Notes under the pieces: generated by a model
Databases searched by the model: none
What the model was told of the DNA's origin: nothing
Seen by the model: only the letters and a program-made list of their open reading frames with translations
In this document: in pieces, positions 31,915 through 48,466 of the stretch
How the letters are laid out: every line of letters begins with the position of its first letter
Numbering within the stretch: the stretch's first letter is position 1
Translations under genes and position numbers: made by a program
DNA from: an uncultured virus (IMG/VR IMGVR_UViG_3300033069_000905)
Taxonomy: Duplodnaviria > Heunggongvirae > Uroviricota > Caudoviricetes
Direction: 5' to 3' (one strand)
Virus record (IMG/VR): IMGVR_UViG_3300033069_000905
Coordinates: 62,001-126,000 of that record
Length of the DNA: 64,000 nt

Positions 31915-32694
31915 TTACTTGCAACGCTTAGGCTTACGTTTTTTATTAGAAAACACCACTTCAGGGGATTCACCGTCTAAGATTTTAACTCTAACCGCTG
32001 TTAATGTTTGATTCGTTCTACGCGCAATTTCTGAAAGATTCAACATCTCAACACCGGATTCTGTGGGGAAAGGATAAAACTTAGGGACATCGGGGTTACG
32101 ATGTGTCGGAGTGGTAACTATTTTCTCATCTGACCAACCCAAAGATTTACGGTGCCATAGCGTCTTCACAGGAATGTTTATTTCTTCTGCCCATTCAATC
32201 ATGCATTGTGTTTTACCGTCGTAAGTAACTAAGACGTTGCTCTTACGATTACGCGCACGCTCCTTAGCGTTAGTATGGACTTTATCGCCCAAGGCTTTTT
32301 CTAGGGGCATTCCTGAGTGGTGTCGCCCAATTAGTGTCGACACGCCCATACCTTTTTCCCTAGCCCACTCAGCAACGTTCTTTGTTTCACCGTTATGCGT
32401 GAGCGCAATGCTGGTGCGCCTATTTTGGGCTTGCTGTTTCTTTGTCGCCCACTGACAGTTAGCCGGTTCGTAATTTCCGTTAACGTCAAGGCGCTCTAGG
32501 GAAGTTCCCACAGGCTTTATCCCCATATCTACAACGAAGTTATCCGCAGATTCTAGCCATCGCTCGCACACAATGATTCCACGACCACCGTAGCTAAGGT
32601 AATTTGCGCTGCTAGGAACCGTGCATCTGTCTCGCATGCTTCGCCAACTTCCAAAAGTGTAAACAATTTGCATAAAATCACCCGTGACTAGCAT
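31915..32694 (-). mobile_element. Free-standing HNH homing endonuclease
   Basis: SWRSMRDRC...YGGRGIIVCERW...SLERLDVNGNYEPANCQWAT, plus repeated DNA-binding modules (GxT...EWA). Confidence 0.88.
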
Positions 32695-41880: not shown

Positions 41881-42103
41881 GGGTTTCCTTTGGGGGATGA
41901 TACTCCCCTTTATCATCCACACAAAATAAAGTATCTGCTTCAGCCAGTGCACGCCAACGATCCCCCAAGTCACATGCGGCCATGAACTGCATGTGCTTAC
42001 GATCTAATAGACCAATGTTCCGATTACTTTGTAAGGCTTCTAAAAACGTCTTTTTGTCCCTTGTGATAGTCGTCCCAATCATCACCGCCACAATTTCTTT
42101 CAT
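41870..42103 (-). CDS. Hypothetical protein
   Basis: 77 aa; ATGA overlap with the GIY-YIG gene. Confidence 0.5.
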   Translation of the reverse strand: MKEIVAVMIGTTITRDKKTFLEALQSNRNIGLLDRKHMQFMAACDLGDRWRALAEADTLFCVDDKGEYHPPKETHDA

Positions 42104-42909
42104 GTCACACCTTTAGCTTTTTCCCTATTTCTTAGAGTGCTAGCACGCTTCCTCGCTTTTTGCTCTTCTGTAAGGGTCAATGATTTATTTTCATCCCTGC
42201 GTTTAGCGTAGTACGCTAAATGAGAAATCCTCAACTTTTCACGTGTTTCTTCTGAAACTGGTGGGCGTGCCGCCCTAGCCGCGTCAAGCTGCGCTTTTCG
42301 TTCGGCTGTGAACTCTAGTTTTTTATGTGACTCACTGATTTTAGCTTTCACAGACGGGCTATGTGCCTTCCCTAAGTTAGCAGCACGTAATTTGGCTTTT
42401 GTTTCGTCTGTAGTAACCCTCCCTTTTTGAGCTAAACTAATCTTAGCCCTGACTTCATCAGGCAACTTTTTACCCTTGTTTCTGGCGTGGCAATCTAATA
42501 AGTTCTTAAGAGAAACAGCGGAAAAACACTTACGTAGTTTATCCCTTGTGGCCTGAGAAACAGGCTTACGGTACTTTGCCGATTCCCTGAGTTTATTTCG
42601 TGTAGCGTCAGAGTGGATTAATCCGTAAGCACCCTCGCCGCCTTCCGTTAAATTTGTTAAAACCTTGCCGCTTACAGTTCGATACTCGGCAATAAGCTGC
42701 TTCTCTTTTTTACACGCATCTCCCCAACTCAAACCACTTTGCAATATGTTGACCATGTAGCCATGCTTTGCTACGGTACGGTGCCAATGCGGGTTTCTGG
42801 CGTAGACACTCCAAGGGCGACCACGCGCACCGATACCCACATAAAACACAACGTCATCTGTTATCCTACTGTGTGTGTATAACATAACATTGTCTTTTTT
42901 AGTTGTCAT
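42100..42909 (-). mobile_element. Free-standing GIY-YIG homing endonuclease with NUMOD3 repeats
   Basis: YTH...FYVGIG...R...EKQLI...LTNLTEGGEG followed by repeated SxETRxKLR/KIS motifs. Confidence 0.85.
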
Positions 42910-42940: not shown

Positions 42941-45900
42941 TTATAACTTAAGCTTGGTGAGCGCAGACCACGAGGGGCCAATTTCCACATCACAGGAAAA
43001 CTTCACCTTCGGTTTCCAATGCACTTGTTCAAAGGGAAGATTCTCCATAATCTCTTTGTACCGCTTCGCGTAATACTCCACGTTGTCTTCGGGAAGATAA
43101 AACACCAACGCATCATGACACATCATCACCACCGGGGCTTTCTTTGTCAAGCCTTCACGATGCATAATTGATGTTGCCCACAAAGACATGTCAGACAAGC
43201 AGCCTTGCACGGGCGAGTTGACTGCTCTACGCAGTTCCTTGGACGCTACCTGCTTGTCTGAGCTATTCAACAACGGTAAATGCCTAATTCGACCTAGCGG
43301 GGAGTGCGTGTAGCCGTACTTCTTGGCGAAGTCCTTGTACCTATCGTGCCATGGGATAAGGTATTTATAAGTTTCGAAAAATAAATCACGGTTAATTGTA
43401 GCCTCTTCCAAGGTCATAACGTGCCTGTAGGCTATCTCTGCATAGTCCCTGTAACCCTCTGCGCCCATGCCGTAGCAGTTTGACACAAGAACACCCGAGC
43501 AAGTGAATCTTCGGCGGGGGCCAGCGTTCAGAATATCATATACCCTAACTCTTTCAGTTTTAAAGCCAAGGCTTCGTAATTCTTCTGCTTCTTTGCGATT
43601 ACGTTCTTGCATCGCTCGATAATCTGTTCCCCTGACAACCCCGCGTACACCAGTTCTCTCGTCTTCTCCAAGCTGTAAGGGCTTTTCCATTCTTTCCACG
43701 GGGTCACGATCCCCATAAAAGTAAACGTAGGTGTCGTTATCCCCGTAGTCGGCGCATAACCAAGAGTCTCTAGGCGTTGTTGCAACACTCTCCAATTTTT
43801 GCACTTCTTGGCGATTGAATCCTTGGCTCGCTGAATTATCTGCCCTCCCGTTAAACCCGCTTTGGCAAACGCTTGTGTTCTTCGGGGATGGTAAGGACTT
43901 TTCCAATCCGCCCAAAACATCTTCACGCCTTGATACGTCAGGAAGACGTTGTGATCCAAATTGCGATGGTTCTCTGAACTTGAGACTAATCGAAGATTTT
44001 CTGGTGAGTAGTGTCCTTTGTTGTCTATCCTGTCGAACTCCAAACCCTTGTAACTCCCCACAGGGAATGTTTCCAACGCCCAACGAATAAAATGCTCTCG
44101 TGATTCGAACAAGCACTTTATTCCCTTCCCTTTGTAGTCTTTTGACTGCTTGTGTGTATCTCTGTTGCAACGCTGCACCATACAGTCGTAACGTGCCCCT
44201 AAAACTTGGGCGCGTTTGTCTCCGTGATACTTGTCCCTTCTTGCACATTTCCCACCAAGGGTATGCCCCAAGTATAAGTCCCTTGCTCGAACTTGATGAA
44301 AGGTTCCGCACAGAGAGCAATCCATTCGCACTATGTCCGAATAGAACCGTGGAGACTCCCCCTTTGCTAACGTCATCGTACCGAAGGATCGGCTTTCCAG
44401 AAACGCTTGCAGTTCTTGCAAGCTTGGCACCTTCTTTAGCGGCTTGCTGCAATTCGATTTTTCTTCCGTCTTCTGTCCAGACGTTATGGTTTGGTGTTGC
44501 GCTAACTCCGTCCCATTCAAAGACTTCGAACCACCCTTGATGAATAATACCGTCATGATTAACCCACTCCAATCCGTCCCACAGTTTATGGTGTGCTTCT
44601 ACGTCTTGGATTTTAATATTGCCATTGCTAGTTAAGCAAACACTATTTGAAGGTAAAGCCAAGCCGAAGTTAGCTCCCTTTGCCGCCTGACGCTTATCCT
44701 CGTAAATCTTAGCTAGGGCGGGGTTTTCATTGTCTTTGTAGGACATGAACGTTTCAAAATCAATCTTGGCAAGACCCGCCCCCGTAACCGCATGCAAGTC
44801 AAGGTCGTTGGCATAGGCGTTCAACATCACAGGGTCACCGCTTAAATCTGCGGCTATGCGTAATTCCCCTTGCCCGTAGTCGATATTGCACACCACAAAT
44901 CCGGGTGGGGCAATATACGCCCTGCGTAACGGCTTTGCCCACTTCGTCTTCTTGGGCACTGTATTGTGCACTACCATCCCGTTAGCAATGAATGAATGGC
45001 TACCCGCGATAGTTAAATCAAAAGTTTCTTCTGGTGTTATGGCTTCAATGCTTACGATGCAGTCTTTACTGAATCCCCCCACCAAGGCTTGACAGGCATG
45101 GTAAGGGCTACTGTCGGGTTCAACCCTCTCCGCAGCCTCGCGGCTAACGTAGCTGGTTTCATGTTCATCTGAACAGCCCACTCGATTAGGTGCTTTCTCT
45201 CCCCCATAAATTCGATGTAGACACTGGCCCTGCGATTCCGCGCCTGTTCCGAATCTGTCGCCCACCTGCAATTGTCTAAGCTGTAATTCCCATTCGTATC
45301 CAACCTGTCTAATGATTTCTTCTGTGGCTTCTCCCCCATGTCTTTCAGAAATATCTCGAATGACTCTTTCCAAGAAGAACAGACTATGATCCCTCTCCCC
45401 CCATAGTCCTTGTAGTCTTTGTCGTTCGGGTTGTAACATCTGGACAGCATGTGCTGCCATGACCAATAGGTAGATGATGTCTTCCCTCTGCGGTTGTGAC
45501 CATGTGTTGTTAGCCTGTCCCGCCTGTAACAACCACAAGACATGCTCGGAGTCGTTACAGTCAGTGACCCCGCCCGAAGCTCCCGAATGGTTCCACATTC
45601 GCACTGGCAGACGTATCTCCGATGGCCGTCCAGAATCGTACCCAAGTCCTGCACGACTGTCCAACGCCCTATTTTCATCCCCGCCACCACGCGCTGCTTC
45701 TTCATAGTATCTCCACACCGAAGCCCCAACTTCTAGTTTGTCGGCTTTAACAAACCCAATATCAGTTAACCACGGGTGATTAGTTGTGCATTCAACAGTT
45801 GCCCCTGATTTAGTGGTAATCCGCAATAACGGTTGTACACCGTTACGATAAGCACCAATCACGGGCTTCCACTCACCAGTATGGGTTAGTACCGTAAATC

Positions 45901-48466
45901 CTTCCCCGCGCTCTACGCCCTGAACCACAGAGAGTATAGTGTGTTCTCCCTTTTCGGTCAAGACTGTAGTGCTACCTTCTAAACATTGAAGCGCCGGGTC
46001 TGTGATTGAGATGCGGCCTGTGTTGTGCGTTACCACGCCCCCCGACACATGCGAGTAGTTATCCGCCACTGAAACACCAAAGGTAGGCTCAGGCTCTTGG
46101 TCTTCAATGCAAACAACGGATGCTTCATAAAAATTATTGGGGTACGTCCATTGCGGGTCTTTATTCCACCGTTTGCCTGTTCTGGCGTCACGCACACTTT
46201 CCCTAGCCACACCAAGCATCTTGCCAAGAACACCGTCGCTTAATGTTGACGCACGAATTAGCTGCACAGACTCCCATGTTAGTTTTGCCTGTGATCCGCG
46301 TGTCTTATTAAGCCGCCCTTGCTGCGAAGCATCGTCACGATTGGTTTTCCCAGAACCCCAAGCTAGATTTCCAACCGTGTTATCCCAAGCAATGCCGTTC
46401 AAGTGCATAACTTCGGTATGTCCTTCGGGGTTTGGTATGAAGGCTAACGCCACTAATCTATGCAGAGAAAAATCTCTGCGGTCTTCTCCCCTGACCTGAG
46501 AACCGTTCCGCGCAAATTGAACTTTTAAATGCCCCCACTTACCCTTCTGATGCGCCTTTATAATCTTACCGCTGTAGTGTGACTTGACGCGCCCCCAACT
46601 AGACACTGAGTAGCCCCAATCAGGAACGGGCTTCCATACCTCAACGTCTGAATGGACAGTAACGGAGTCCCCGACTTTCAAATCTTCGGCATTAACCCAC
46701 GCACCATTAGAAAGGTAGGGGTGGTTATTCGTCGTCCGTAGCGACAAACCGTTAGACAGAGTTACCTTTTTAATCGGCTTAATACCGTTGGGTATAAAAT
46801 CAAAAACAGCTTTCGGTTCCCCTGTGTGAGAGATAACTAAGTCATTGATCTTTACGTCTTCAATAGGCAAGTAACCGCGATTGGTTAGTATTAGCTCACC
46901 AGAAGGAAAGCATACAGCACCAGCGTCACGCTCATCGCTTTCCAACGCACCCCGATACAATGAATACCCTGCATGAAAACGGTCGTCATACCGAAGATGC
47001 TTCATGAACCCCACAACGTAAGTGCTCAGGGTTTTTGAAATGTCCTTGTACTCTTTCACCACTTTGATGAAGGGTGCAGCAACAGGATTCTTCTCGAACT
47101 TCAAGAAGTGTTCCATCGCCGTTGATGGTTTGGGTAGTCCTGTCTTTTTGTCGGGCTTCGGGGTAAACATTACGGGCTTTAACTTCATGCCCAATTTTGA
47201 AAAGAAGAAGCACCCCAACATAGCCGCTCGGGACAAGTCCAAGTTGTCTCTGTACTTGGCTTTTATTCTCCCCGGCAGCATGGCTAGGGCACGTACAGCG
47301 TTGTTTTTTGTGTCAGCCTGTAGCTCACGCTTGAATTTATTATAATAAACCGTGTCGACCAGAACACCGACTTGCTCAACTTCTTCATACGCCCGTGCGG
47401 CAGGGTGCAGGATTTTTATGTAAAAGTTAGCCAACATGGGAAGGTCGTGCACATCACCCACCCCGTCTAAGGTTGCAGGGTAGCGGTAAGTAACTAGCTC
47501 GTGCCGCATCTTCTCCGCAGCTTCTAGGCAGACTGTCGTATCGTATCCGCAGTACGGAAGAAGAACATCAGGCGGAACGTCTTGGGGGCGTGCTATGTCG
47601 TAGTTCTGGTTTAGCTCTAGTTCATACCCCCCGTAGATCGTGTAAACGTGAGCGTGCGTTTTCAAACTATTAGAACGGTTTTCGTCCAGCAGACTCCCCA
47701 CCAACAGGGTGTCCATCTTGAAGTTGGTGCAGTGAATCCCCCACTTCTCGTGCAGCCAGTTTAGATCGTACTTTAGGTTCGCCCCCTTCATCGAAACTTG
47801 GGGGTGAGTAAGGATGTAGTTGACTTGAAGCCAGATTAGTTCTTCACGGCACGTAGCCGCGCCCTTCGGGTTTCTGGGTTGAAAGTCTTGATCGAAATGG
47901 ATGACGCGGGATGATTTGGTATCCAGCGAGATTTGAAAGGTGACAATCCATGTGGACTTGTCATACGCAACCAGACCCGTGGTTTCAAGGTCTATTGCTA
48001 CGTCCACCATAGTCTTTTTTGACGCTACCAAGGCGTCTAGCTGCTCTATCACGCCCGTTAAGTCCTGCACCCACTGGAAATCCAAAGCGGGGGGCTTGAC
48101 ACTCCCTGTAAGCAGCTTTCTTACCGCAAGTTTTATGTCCCCGCACAAGTCAATCGACAGGGAGTAGTCAACTGACCTGATACTGAAGGAATACGAGACG
48201 AACAAAGACGCCCCCGATGGGAGCGCCTTTTCTACACCGCGCATTGAACCTATCGTTCGGTTCTTGGGGACGATGCCTTGCTTTTTTAGCTCATCTAGGG
48301 GGTGATTTCCTAATGCTATAACTACATCACCCACAGCCGACTCAGGAAGTTCCCCTTCCTTGAATCCGATGTTCCTACACGTTACACCCGTTCCCTTCAA
48401 CAGAGGCGGCAACATCTTTGACTGGTTGGGGTCTATTCCCTTTGACCACAGTATAAGCTTTCCCAT
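42941..48466 (-). CDS. polA: DNA polymerase family A precursor (UDG-like N-terminus, 3'-5' exonuclease) with three inteins; mature protein about 809 aa
   Basis: Exo DLETTG, NLKYD, YCGYD; after splicing GAV|TGRISITDPALQ|TVP, motif A DYGQGELR, motif B RQAAKGANFGL|CYG, NSPVQG, motif C CHDA. Confidence 0.95.
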   Translation of the reverse strand: MGKLILWSKGIDPNQSKMLPPLLKGTGVTCRNIGFKEGELPESAVGDVVIALGNHPLDELKKQGIVPKNRTIGSMRGVEKALPSGASLFVSYSFSIRSVDYSLSIDLCGDIKLAVRKLLTGSVKPPALDFQWVQDLTGVIEQLDALVASKKTMVDVAIDLETTGLVAYDKSTWIVTFQISLDTKSSRVIHFDQDFQPRNPKGAATCREELIWLQVNYILTHPQVSMKGANLKYDLNWLHEKWGIHCTNFKMDTLLVGSLLDENRSNSLKTHAHVYTIYGGYELELNQNYDIARPQDVPPDVLLPYCGYDTTVCLEAAEKMRHELVTYRYPATLDGVGDVHDLPMLANFYIKILHPAARAYEEVEQVGVLVDTVYYNKFKRELQADTKNNAVRALAMLPGRIKAKYRDNLDLSRAAMLGCFFFSKLGMKLKPVMFTPKPDKKTGLPKPSTAMEHFLKFEKNPVAAPFIKVVKEYKDISKTLSTYVVGFMKHLRYDDRFHAGYSLYRGALESDERDAGAVCFPSGELILTNRGYLPIEDVKINDLVISHTGEPKAVFDFIPNGIKPIKKVTLSNGLSLRTTNNHPYLSNGAWVNAEDLKVGDSVTVHSDVEVWKPVPDWGYSVSSWGRVKSHYSGKIIKAHQKGKWGHLKVQFARNGSQVRGEDRRDFSLHRLVALAFIPNPEGHTEVMHLNGIAWDNTVGNLAWGSGKTNRDDASQQGRLNKTRGSQAKLTWESVQLIRASTLSDGVLGKMLGVARESVRDARTGKRWNKDPQWTYPNNFYEASVVCIEDQEPEPTFGVSVADNYSHVSGGVVTHNTGRISITDPALQCLEGSTTVLTEKGEHTILSVVQGVERGEGFTVLTHTGEWKPVIGAYRNGVQPLLRITTKSGATVECTTNHPWLTDIGFVKADKLEVGASVWRYYEEAARGGGDENRALDSRAGLGYDSGRPSEIRLPVRMWNHSGASGGVTDCNDSEHVLWLLQAGQANNTWSQPQREDIIYLLVMAAHAVQMLQPERQRLQGLWGERDHSLFFLERVIRDISERHGGEATEEIIRQVGYEWELQLRQLQVGDRFGTGAESQGQCLHRIYGGEKAPNRVGCSDEHETSYVSREAAERVEPDSSPYHACQALVGGFSKDCIVSIEAITPEETFDLTIAGSHSFIANGMVVHNTVPKKTKWAKPLRRAYIAPPGFVVCNIDYGQGELRIAADLSGDPVMLNAYANDLDLHAVTGAGLAKIDFETFMSYKDNENPALAKIYEDKRQAAKGANFGLALPSNSVCLTSNGNIKIQDVEAHHKLWDGLEWVNHDGIIHQGWFEVFEWDGVSATPNHNVWTEDGRKIELQQAAKEGAKLARTASVSGKPILRYDDVSKGGVSTVLFGHSANGLLSVRNLSSSSSKGLILGAYPWWEMCKKGQVSRRQTRPSFRGTLRLYGAALQQRYTQAVKRLQREGNKVLVRITRAFYSLGVGNIPCGELQGFGVRQDRQQRTLLTRKSSISLKFREPSQFGSQRLPDVSRREDVLGGLEKSLPSPKNTSVCQSGFNGRADNSASQGFNRQEVQKLESVATTPRDSWLCADYGDNDTYVYFYGDRDPVERMEKPLQLGEDERTGVRGVVRGTDYRAMQERNRKEAEELRSLGFKTERVRVYDILNAGPRRRFTCSGVLVSNCYGMGAEGYRDYAEIAYRHVMTLEEATINRDLFFETYKYLIPWHDRYKDFAKKYGYTHSPLGRIRHLPLLNSSDKQVASKELRRAVNSPVQGCLSDMSLWATSIMHREGLTKKAPVVMMCHDALVFYLPEDNVEYYAKRYKEIMENLPFEQVHWKPKVKFSCDVEIGPSWSALTKLKL
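43478..44659 (-). mobile_element. Intein 3 (394 aa), Ala1 / SN|C type; endonuclease encoded in an alternative frame
   Basis: ALPSNSVCLT...ATPNH...VYDILNAGPRRRFTCSGVLVSN|CYG, inserted in polymerase motif B. Confidence 0.88.
43528..44556 (-). CDS. HNH endonuclease nested in the +1 frame of intein 3
   Basis: CSLCG...RYDCMVQRC...YKGKGIKC...EFDRIDNKGHYSPENLRLVSSSEN, plus duplicated C-terminal modules; true start uncertain (ATG 44556 or GTG 44430). Confidence 0.85.
   Translation of the reverse strand: MTVLFIKGGSKSLNGTELAQHQTITSGQKTEEKSNCSKPLKKVPSLQELQAFLESRSFGTMTLAKGESPRFYSDIVRMDCSLCGTFHQVRARDLYLGHTLGGKCARRDKYHGDKRAQVLGARYDCMVQRCNRDTHKQSKDYKGKGIKCLFESREHFIRWALETFPVGSYKGLEFDRIDNKGHYSPENLRLVSSSENHRNLDHNVFLTYQGVKMFWADWKSPYHPRRTQAFAKAGLTGGQIIQRAKDSIAKKCKNWRVLQQRLETLGYAPTTGITTPTFTFMGIVTPWKEWKSPYSLEKTRELVYAGLSGEQIIERCKNVIAKKQKNYEALALKLKELGYMIF
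44963..45985 (-). mobile_element. Intein 2 (341 aa); endonuclease encoded in an alternative frame
   Basis: CLEGSTTVLT...CTTNHPW...TFDLTIAGSHSFIANGMVVHN|T. Confidence 0.92.
45052..45705 (-). CDS. HNH endonuclease nested in the +1 frame of intein 2 (217 aa)
   Basis: GGAG-N5-ATG start; GRWTV..CQCECG..SCGC..HG..TYWSWQHMLSRC..YGGRGIIVC..SLDRLDTNGNYSLDNCRWAT. Confidence 0.9.
   Translation of the reverse strand: MKKQRVVAGMKIGRWTVVQDLGTILDGHRRYVCQCECGTIRELRAGSLTVTTPSMSCGCYRRDRLTTHGHNRRGKTSSTYWSWQHMLSRCYNPNDKDYKDYGGRGIIVCSSWKESFEIFLKDMGEKPQKKSLDRLDTNGNYSLDNCRWATDSEQARNRRASVYIEFMGERKHLIEWAVQMNMKPATLAARLRRGLNPTVALTMPVKPWWGDSVKTAS
46022..46912 (-). mobile_element. Intein 1 (297 aa) with in-frame NUMOD4-HNH endonuclease
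   Basis: CFPSGELILT...TTNNHPY...VVTHN|T; internal WKPVPDWGYSVSSWGRVKS and HRLVALAFIPNP...VMHLNG..DN..NLAW. Confidence 0.92.

Follow-up and report, generated by a model that had tools for sequence, protein, structure and literature searches.

The polymerase locus and its third intein

The stretch of DNA analysed here (the window) comprises 64,000 nucleotides (nt) of the 131,953-base viral record IMGVR_UViG_3300033069_000905. Its minus strand carries an open reading frame (ORF) for a family-A DNA polymerase that is interrupted by three inteins, all of them in conserved polymerase motifs, and we focused on the third, intein 3, which features a second long ORF in the +1 frame between its splicing lobes. 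A Pfam search indicated that the polymerase also has a 3'-5' exonuclease domain, and removal of the three inteins leaves an extein of 809 amino acids (aa) in total. Intein 3 is inserted in polymerase motif B, between NFGL and CYG; the extein is continuous once the insert is removed, and an intein occupies the same motif B site in a related viral locus, L008. The features of the polymerase gene and intein 3 are listed below, where confidence in structural models is given by pLDDT (predicted local distance difference test) scores.

42941..48466, minus strand: ORF for a family-A DNA polymerase of 1841 aa, its three inteins included (DNA_pol_A E 5e-45, DNA_pol_A_exo1, Intein_splicing E 4e-18)
43478..44659, minus strand: intein 3, 394 aa, in the polymerase frame (polymerase residues 1270-1663; alignment with 13 relatives)
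44396..44659, minus strand: N-terminal HINT splicing lobe, intein residues 1-88, including block B T-P-N-H (pLDDT ~88-93)
43553..44395, minus strand: host-frame linker, intein residues ~89-369, stop-free, predicted to be disordered, not conserved
43478..43552, minus strand: C-terminal splicing lobe with blocks F and G, intein residues 370-394 (pLDDT ~90)
43528..44556, minus strand: +1-frame ORF of 342 codons plus TGA, putative HNH-like homing endonuclease gene (phrog_374 E 1e-23, fold model)
43954..44253, minus strand: predicted nuclease core, residues 102-201 of the +1 product (family alignment, structural match to PacI)
43702..43917, minus strand: C-terminal helical module, copy 1 (helices 224-264)
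43531..43701, minus strand: C-terminal helical module, copy 2 (helices 296-336), whose last codons overlap intein block F

Splicing lobes and linker of intein 3

Alignment to relatives and counts of stops per frame confirmed the extent of intein 3 and the stop-free insert that had been proposed from the sequence alone (hereafter the original prediction). Both lobes are predicted to adopt the HINT fold. A Foldseek search with the host-frame model gave the mini-intein NpuDnaE as its best match (4kl5_A, E 8e-4, template modelling score 0.53, root mean square deviation (rmsd) 2.9), and nearly all of the listed matches were inteins or HINT domains. The Thr-x-x-His of block B is present, with T55 and H58 invariant in 14/14 aligned inteins, and the alignment identified D375, N378, G380, F385 and N394 as conserved residues of the C-terminal lobe. 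Intein 3 ends in Ser-Asn and is followed by an extein Cys; N394 is invariant, so both the C-terminal Asn and the downstream nucleophile are in place. Between the lobes, intein residues 92-343 have pLDDT values below 50 in the host-frame model, and the alignment showed no conservation of the linker beyond columns forced by the nuclease frame.

The first residue of intein 3 is Ala (codon 44657-44659, minus strand), where Cys is found in 13/13 aligned relatives and in Hamiltonella phage APSE-1, and this codon showed no variant across the four sequencing runs compared. Intein 3 therefore lacks the Cys or Ser at position 1 that marks class 1 inteins. Two further residues set it apart from the aligned relatives: Cys at position 8, which is Val in 13/13, and Cys at position 387, which is Val or Ala in 12/13. 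Together, these three residues may reflect a different splicing route or impaired splicing. Inteins that begin with Ala and lack an N-terminal nucleophile, yet still splice, are known (classes 2 and 3), so splicing of intein 3 is plausible on this precedent. Splicing activity itself is presumed, given how abundant the phage is across many sequencing runs.

An HNH-like ORF in the +1 frame

The starts of the polymerase ORF and the inner ORF are separated by 3910 nt (48466-44556), which equals 1 mod 3 and places the inner ORF in the +1 frame. Its TGA stop overlaps the codons for Leu and Asn in the host-frame sequence VYDILN and falls inside block F, as originally described. The claim that this frame (44556-43528) encodes an HNH protein was supported by the PHROG matches of its product, phrog_374 (E 1e-23) and phrog_3377 (E 5e-22), two families that carry the label HNH endonuclease. 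The structural model of the product has a mean pLDDT of 77.7: residues 1-37 fall below 50, residues 41-268 exceed 80, and confidence is high again in the second repeat. Foldseek returned no match to this model at E <= 0.001, and the top match in VIA-align was the HNH restriction enzyme PacI (3m7k_A, Z 6.4, rmsd 2.9, 85 residues aligned).

An alignment of 49 sequences identified R129, Y141, R176, Y183 and N187 as invariant in the nuclease family, and C104, C130, G145, I146, D175 and N199 as nearly so, along with C80 and C83 just upstream of the core; the window's copy retains all of these residues. The near-invariant C80, C83, C104 and C130 have the make-up of a four-Cys structural zinc site and probably bind metal. 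At the C-terminus, the tandem duplication reported in the original prediction was confirmed, with 27/53 identical residues (51%, pairwise E 1e-19), whereas the same stretch read in the host frame is ~23% identical by hand count. The duplicated helical module, which presumably binds DNA, occurs as a single copy in the relatives from Gardnerella and Streptococcus Javan phages described below. Only the disordered head of the +1 ORF, which overlaps block B, and its last codons, which overlap block F, share sequence with the splicing blocks, so the truly dual-functional overlap is short.

Openness of both frames and evidence for selection

Over the 342 codons of the +1 ORF, the third frame contains 24 stops and the host and nuclease frames contain none. 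When synonymous codons of the nuclease frame were shuffled, the host frame always acquired stops (0/2000 open; mean 15.2 stops, minimum 6). In the reverse test, with host-frame codons shuffled, an open +1 frame survived in 0/2000 cases for intein 3 (mean 9 stops) and 2/2000 for the comparable +1 ORF of intein 2. A profile scan of viral contigs returned 516 relatives of the nuclease, from which the best 80 were kept. Among these, 64 free-standing relatives contain 1726 stops in 14486 codons in the same register (0.119 per codon), a rate at which 342 open codons have P ~1e-19. The joint openness of both frames is therefore not due to chance. In 18 nested ORFs, T occupied nuclease codon position 3 in 0/1293 cases in which AA, AG or GA follows, against a T frequency of 25% elsewhere and 34% among free-standing relatives, which indicates that the changes by which host-frame stops were removed leave the nuclease sequence unaltered.

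The original prediction took the repeats as a sign of selection on the +1 frame, and position-3 excesses in three separate comparisons agree with this. Across the core of nine Javan/Gardnerella-type copies (omitting L016, a near-copy of L001, and more distant rows), differences per site at nuclease codon positions 1, 2 and 3 were 0.28, 0.21 and 0.58, respectively, a pattern that reads as the coding signature of the nuclease frame and not of the polymerase frame. The head and tail of the +1 ORF, which overlap the splicing blocks, evolved more slowly at all codon positions in these copies. Between the window and its nearest relative, L008, there were 44, 30 and 68 differences at positions 1, 2 and 3 over 119 codons (58% amino-acid identity), and the two repeat halves differ by 20, 19 and 32. 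These comparisons indicate that the nuclease frame is under purifying selection in the relatives.

A second viral contig (178 kb) is 100% identical to the window over 9026 bases. Contigs from four runs belonging to four studies were aligned over 43300-45900 and carried 0, 7, 9 and 0 substitutions and no indels. Assembly error, already thought unlikely in the original prediction, is thereby excluded. At least 14 sequencing runs contain half or more of the stretch, and runs containing it span nine studies. No RNA run with the stretch is on record among the sequencing runs, and four wastewater runs labelled cDNA may be DNA. Collectively, these data show that the out-of-frame nuclease layout is real and shaped by selection.

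Translation start of the nuclease

Two start codons of the +1 ORF are preceded by motifs resembling a Shine-Dalgarno (SD) sequence:

44554..44556, minus strand: ATG, candidate, the earliest start codon in the +1 ORF (GGAG 10 nt upstream at 44567-44570, duplex energy -6.0)
44419..44421, minus strand: TTG, codon 46, candidate favoured by homology (AAGAAGG at 44430-44436, 8-nt spacer, duplex energy -6.0)

TTG 44421 lies 12 codons before a conserved F-G anchor, and free-standing relatives begin ~10-12 residues before this anchor. The confident part of the nuclease fold also begins near this codon, at about residue 41-45. Genes in the window often have GGAG or AGGA 5-8 nt before their start codon, and the motifs of the nuclease are comparable. 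The original prediction had seen no strong SD motif and suggested either a start at GTG 44430 or a +1 frameshift. An internal start is retained here, at other codons: GTG 44430 has no SD-like motif at a usable distance, and the motifs upstream of ATG 44556 and TTG 44421 mean that a frameshift is not needed. Internal initiation is thus the simplest reading.

Inteins 1 and 2 of the same polymerase

The remaining inteins of the polymerase differ in how a nuclease is associated with them.

46022..46912, minus strand: intein 1, 297 aa, with an in-frame NUMOD4/HNH_3-like domain (NUMOD4 E 2.6e-5; HNH_3 E 6e-4)
44963..45985, minus strand: intein 2, 341 aa, of a HINT type unlike that of intein 3, also with a +1 nuclease gene (ORF list, Pfam, alignment)
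45052..45729, minus strand: +1-frame ORF in intein 2, 225 aa (phrog_374 E 1e-63)

Intein 1 has the canonical layout, with its nuclease in frame, although its HNH_3 match (19.8 bits) is under the cut-off. The +1 ORF of intein 2, which the original prediction had named as another HNH gene in the same register, proved to be the stronger PHROG match of the two. It probably starts at ATG 45705, which has GGAG 5 nt upstream, and its product shares ~39% identity with many free-standing phage HNH genes over ~90% of its own length. A single polymerase gene therefore holds one in-frame nuclease intein and two +1 nuclease inteins of different ancestry, a combination peculiar to the window's copy that offers a useful natural comparison. 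Features particular to this copy are its pair of +1 nuclease inteins in a single gene, the Ala that opens intein 3 and the duplicated C-terminal module.

Distribution and origin of nested nuclease genes

Among the 80 best loci, another frame is open across the nuclease match in 16, and the nuclease is nested in a long host ORF in 14, always in the +1 register (14/14). The host genes of these 14 loci encode 11 PolA proteins (family-A polymerases) and three superfamily 2 (SF2) helicases, and the insertions are at several different conserved motifs. The three helicase ORFs (L022, L034 and L077) feature the same HINT family together with a +1 nuclease gene, in two cases directly after the G-K-T motif, so the element is not tied to polymerases. 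The other two of the 16 are L015, a rearranged locus described below, and L058, in which an antisense frame is open for 164 codons across the match; this exceeds the open stretch of the nuclease itself by just four codons and was judged to be chance.

The best-covering tblastn matches among phage records lie inside genes annotated as DNA polymerase in Gardnerella phage vB_Gva_AB1 and in Streptococcus Javan prophages. In both, the match is an ORF of 257-267 aa that is +1 relative to the polymerase, and the intein around it belongs to the HINT family of intein 3. These nested ORFs are not annotated in GenBank entries MW387018 (vB_Gva_AB1; L001, 3043-3846) and MK448670 (Streptococcus phage Javan113; L002, 2998-3771). 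Nested nuclease genes are evidently missed by gene callers, and phage annotation consequently under-counts homing endonucleases. In APSE-1 (NC_000935), RefSeq does annotate a coding sequence (CDS) for an 'HNH endonuclease' nested in the +1 frame of the polymerase gene. The +1 layout is therefore shared by MW387018, MK448670 and NC_000935, and all 19 nested cases examined are in the same register, in keeping with the recurrent intein class suggested in the original prediction.

An in-frame fusion of intein and nuclease, the arrangement that the original prediction had singled out as speaking against it, was not found for this family among the 64 free-standing loci, where the open stretch of the nuclease's own frame reaches 359 codons at most. 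The locus L015 (2691-4570) is rearranged: it has lost the 5' part of the polymerase, whose frame is present from within the intein through to the 3' end, and its nuclease frame is joined in frame to an ORF upstream of it that has a sigma-70 region 4-like segment, yielding a 438-aa ORF. This fusion was rejected as an in-frame intein because it results from rearrangement. A megablast search of phage records with the polymerase gene gave no match, and no intein-free close relative of the polymerase was found, as a scan of viral contigs with the N-extein recovered only the 178-kb contig.

Quick maximum-likelihood trees with Shimodaira-Hasegawa-like approximate likelihood ratio test (SH-aLRT) support, rooted at the midpoint, placed the intein 3 nuclease in a clade of nested genes only (SH-aLRT 98), which contains 16 rows when whole ORFs are used and 14 rows with the core alone. 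In these trees, the nucleases of intein 2, L077 and APSE-1 fall among free-standing genes, and about three changes of state are needed. A single origin may be compatible with the starred branches. A universal +1 rule is not supported, given these roughly three state changes and published cases in the other register. There may be a preference for the +1 register, since any host-frame stop is erasable by a silent T-to-C substitution in the third position of a nuclease codon.

The window and L008 are 28-32% identical in the extein and share about half of the residues of the HINT N-lobe, while their nuclease cores are 58% identical, a pattern that would fit transfer of the element between polymerase genes. 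A more ambitious scenario unites these observations: an old HNH-like lineage would live only overprinted in one HINT family, the composite would have moved among at least four polymerase sites plus helicase motifs while diverging to ~25% identity, and the Cys1 to Ala change of the window's copy (with Cys8 and Cys387) would amount to a naturally occurring switch in the way a functional, essential polymerase is spliced. We regard this combined claim as speculative and, as a whole, rather doubtful.

Interpretation of the overlapping nuclease gene

With a probability of roughly 0.78, we interpret the intein 3 endonuclease as a separate gene overprinted in the +1 frame between the splicing lobes, and not as a domain of the intein protein. 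Ribosomes translating the polymerase frame would yield a precursor with an unstructured linker of ~280 residues, which would be discarded with the intein at splicing. Other ribosomes would initiate within this mRNA, with TTG 44421 as the most probable site and ATG 44556 as the alternative, to produce an HNH-like nuclease of ~300-340 aa with a duplicated C-terminal helical module. This enzyme would presumably cut intein-free polymerase alleles at NFGL/xYG and thereby promote homing.

Several results weigh against this interpretation. Pfam searches at E <= 0.01 and E <= 10 provided no usable family for either of the two +1 ORFs; with the intein 3 product, the NCBIfam search gave no match and the best E value in a search of PDB sequences was 0.42. 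This product scored 12 bits against Pfam HNH_3 (cut-off 24.8), with the C-terminal half of the profile aligned, and the Asp-Arg of the nuclease family stands where the HNH_3 consensus has what we take to be its first His. The structural match to PacI covers model residues 102-201 with a middling score, and HNH-type chemistry is best described as putative. The Ala at intein position 1 means that the standard splicing route is not assured. In addition, most of the selection signal derives from relatives, and overlapping frames distort standard measures of rate. Every population variant within the overlap alters the nuclease protein (3/3; R261H, F164L and S152P) and 2/3 alter the host frame, whereas nearby extein variants are all third-position and silent; with n = 3, this fits relaxed constraint on the window's copy.

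The variants and the atypical first residue could also be accommodated by a copy that is past its mobile phase, in which the layout is real, the nuclease (and perhaps standard splicing) is decaying after fixation and the +1 ORF is open only because this happened recently. The lack of an intein-free close relative in the N-extein scan of viral contigs also agrees with such decay. However, every family-invariant and near-invariant nuclease residue is retained, the predicted fold is confident, and 342 codons are still open where shuffles of the host frame average 9 stops. The repeats likewise remain far more similar in the nuclease frame than in the host frame, and the phage is recovered at depth in many runs, which implies that the polymerase, and hence splicing, must work. 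We therefore consider decay unlikely. Expression by a programmed +1 ribosomal frameshift out of the polymerase/intein frame, which would give a truncated polymerase-HINT(N)-HNH fusion, is more improbable still. The +1 frame is indeed open from 14 codons before ATG 44556 (356 versus 342 codons), such that a shift in block B would read through, and the N-terminal tail of the +1 ORF is conserved in relatives. Yet the overlap with HINT block B explains this conservation, the first 37 residues are poorly predicted, free-standing relatives start where the window has TTG with its SD-like motif, and the intein 2 nuclease has a well-placed GGAG before its own ATG; we know of no slippery site, and no search for one was made.

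A third account, that the nuclease is truly in frame and was displaced by two compensating assembly or sequencing indels, has a negligible likelihood and we consider it refuted. The independent contig is identical, the contigs from four runs are free of indels, and a host frame that is open over 342 codons, without a single stop and against the outcome of every shuffle, is not a product of indels. The common register of the 19 nested cases and the absence of in-frame fusions, with L015 explained by rearrangement, also argue against it. The separate, overprinted gene is thus the interpretation that we carry forward, and intein 3 is a member of the class of inteins with out-of-frame endonucleases: the nuclease ORF lies between the lobes on the same strand but out of frame, no stops interrupt the host frame, and the insert is predicted to be disordered as read in the host frame and to fold as read in the alternative one.

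Relationship to known systems

This kind of intein endonuclease is already in print for other endonuclease types in preprints from 2025-26 and is common in phages, so the novelty implied by the original prediction does not stand; APSE-1 had also been annotated with a nested HNH gene in RefSeq. An endonuclease ORF that lies between the splicing lobes in another frame has been described for actinobacteriophage inteins, including those in DNA polymerases, with invasion by or capture of a free-standing endonuclease gene proposed as its origin (bioRxiv 10.1101/2025.01.02.630785). Intein 3 resembles these inteins in that the ORF is on the same strand and in another frame, and in that the stop-free host frame has no recognisable structure. 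It differs in its enzyme and register, which are endonuclease VII-like and 'frame 3' in the preprint and phrog_374-type HNH-like and +1 in intein 3. The hosts in the preprint are actinobacteriophages, and its accessible text lists HNH only as an in-frame type.

A cyanobacterial dnaX intein harbours an out-of-frame LAGLIDADG gene under purifying selection, for which secondary invasion of a mini-intein was proposed (Phillips, DeSimone and Gogarten, bioRxiv 10.64898/2026.09.14.751524). Overlapping frames, a disordered host insert opposite a confident alternative-frame fold and purifying selection on the endonuclease frame are common to this system and intein 3, whereas the dnaX case, as described in the accessible text, concerns a LAGLIDADG enzyme, a '+2 ORF', a bacterial chromosomal gene and a single intein. 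A further known case is the polymerase of Hamiltonella phage APSE-1 (APSE-1_45, with the nested CDS APSE-1_46). Its intein belongs to the same HINT family as intein 3 (39% over the N lobe), and the nested ORF is in the +1 frame and encodes a nuclease that is 39% identical to that of intein 2 (E 6e-30). However, APSE-1 has one intein, and its annotated nuclease is shorter (140 aa) and groups with free-standing relatives instead of the nested-only clade of intein 3.

Outside inteins of this kind, the ShiLan domain is an out-of-frame HNH insertion in a mycobacteriophage methylase without splicing domains (Arsenault et al., Genes 2025, PMC11855218). It similarly hides an HNH gene in another frame of a stop-free insertion, with internal initiation proposed, but the report describes an insertion that stays in the host protein, whereas the intein 3 insert is presumably removed. 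In fractured genes, split inteins flank a free-standing endonuclease gene (Dassa et al. 2009, PMC2677866). A separate endonuclease gene is thus positioned between intein halves in both systems, but the fractured host gene is reported as two ORFs and the polymerase frame of the window is continuous, as a single ORF of 1841 aa. In-frame HINT-HNH polymerase inteins have the same domains at a conserved motif, with the nuclease as part of the intein polypeptide, while the intein 3 nuclease is predicted to be a separate product. A search of the full-text literature, the figures and supplements of the two preprints aside, turned up no polymerase or helicase intein that contains a +1 HNH gene.

The general principle is therefore set out in the preprints, and the present case adds breadth. 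Intein 3 suggests that long, stable dual coding (~300 codons) can be sustained where one frame is a disposable linker, and supports the view that inteins gain endonucleases via the capture of free-standing genes.

Neighbouring genes and sequence variation

Directly downstream of the polymerase, a 269-aa ORF (42100-42909, minus strand) features a NUMOD3 motif (E 2e-9) and matches phrog_314, labelled 'homing endonuclease' (E 3.5e-19); this free-standing homing-endonuclease-like gene adjoins the intein-laden polymerase. The same virus encodes two further, non-nested relatives of the intein 3 nuclease, at 32362-32640 (minus strand) in the window and at record positions 129417-129917 outside it. 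These matches (E 8.8e-4 and 7e-10, respectively) are possible free-standing paralogues. In sequencing run X8, six consecutive extein codons between inteins 2 and 3 (44849-44864) differ at third positions, all silently, a pattern suggestive of a short recombination or co-conversion tract close to where the inteins are inserted.

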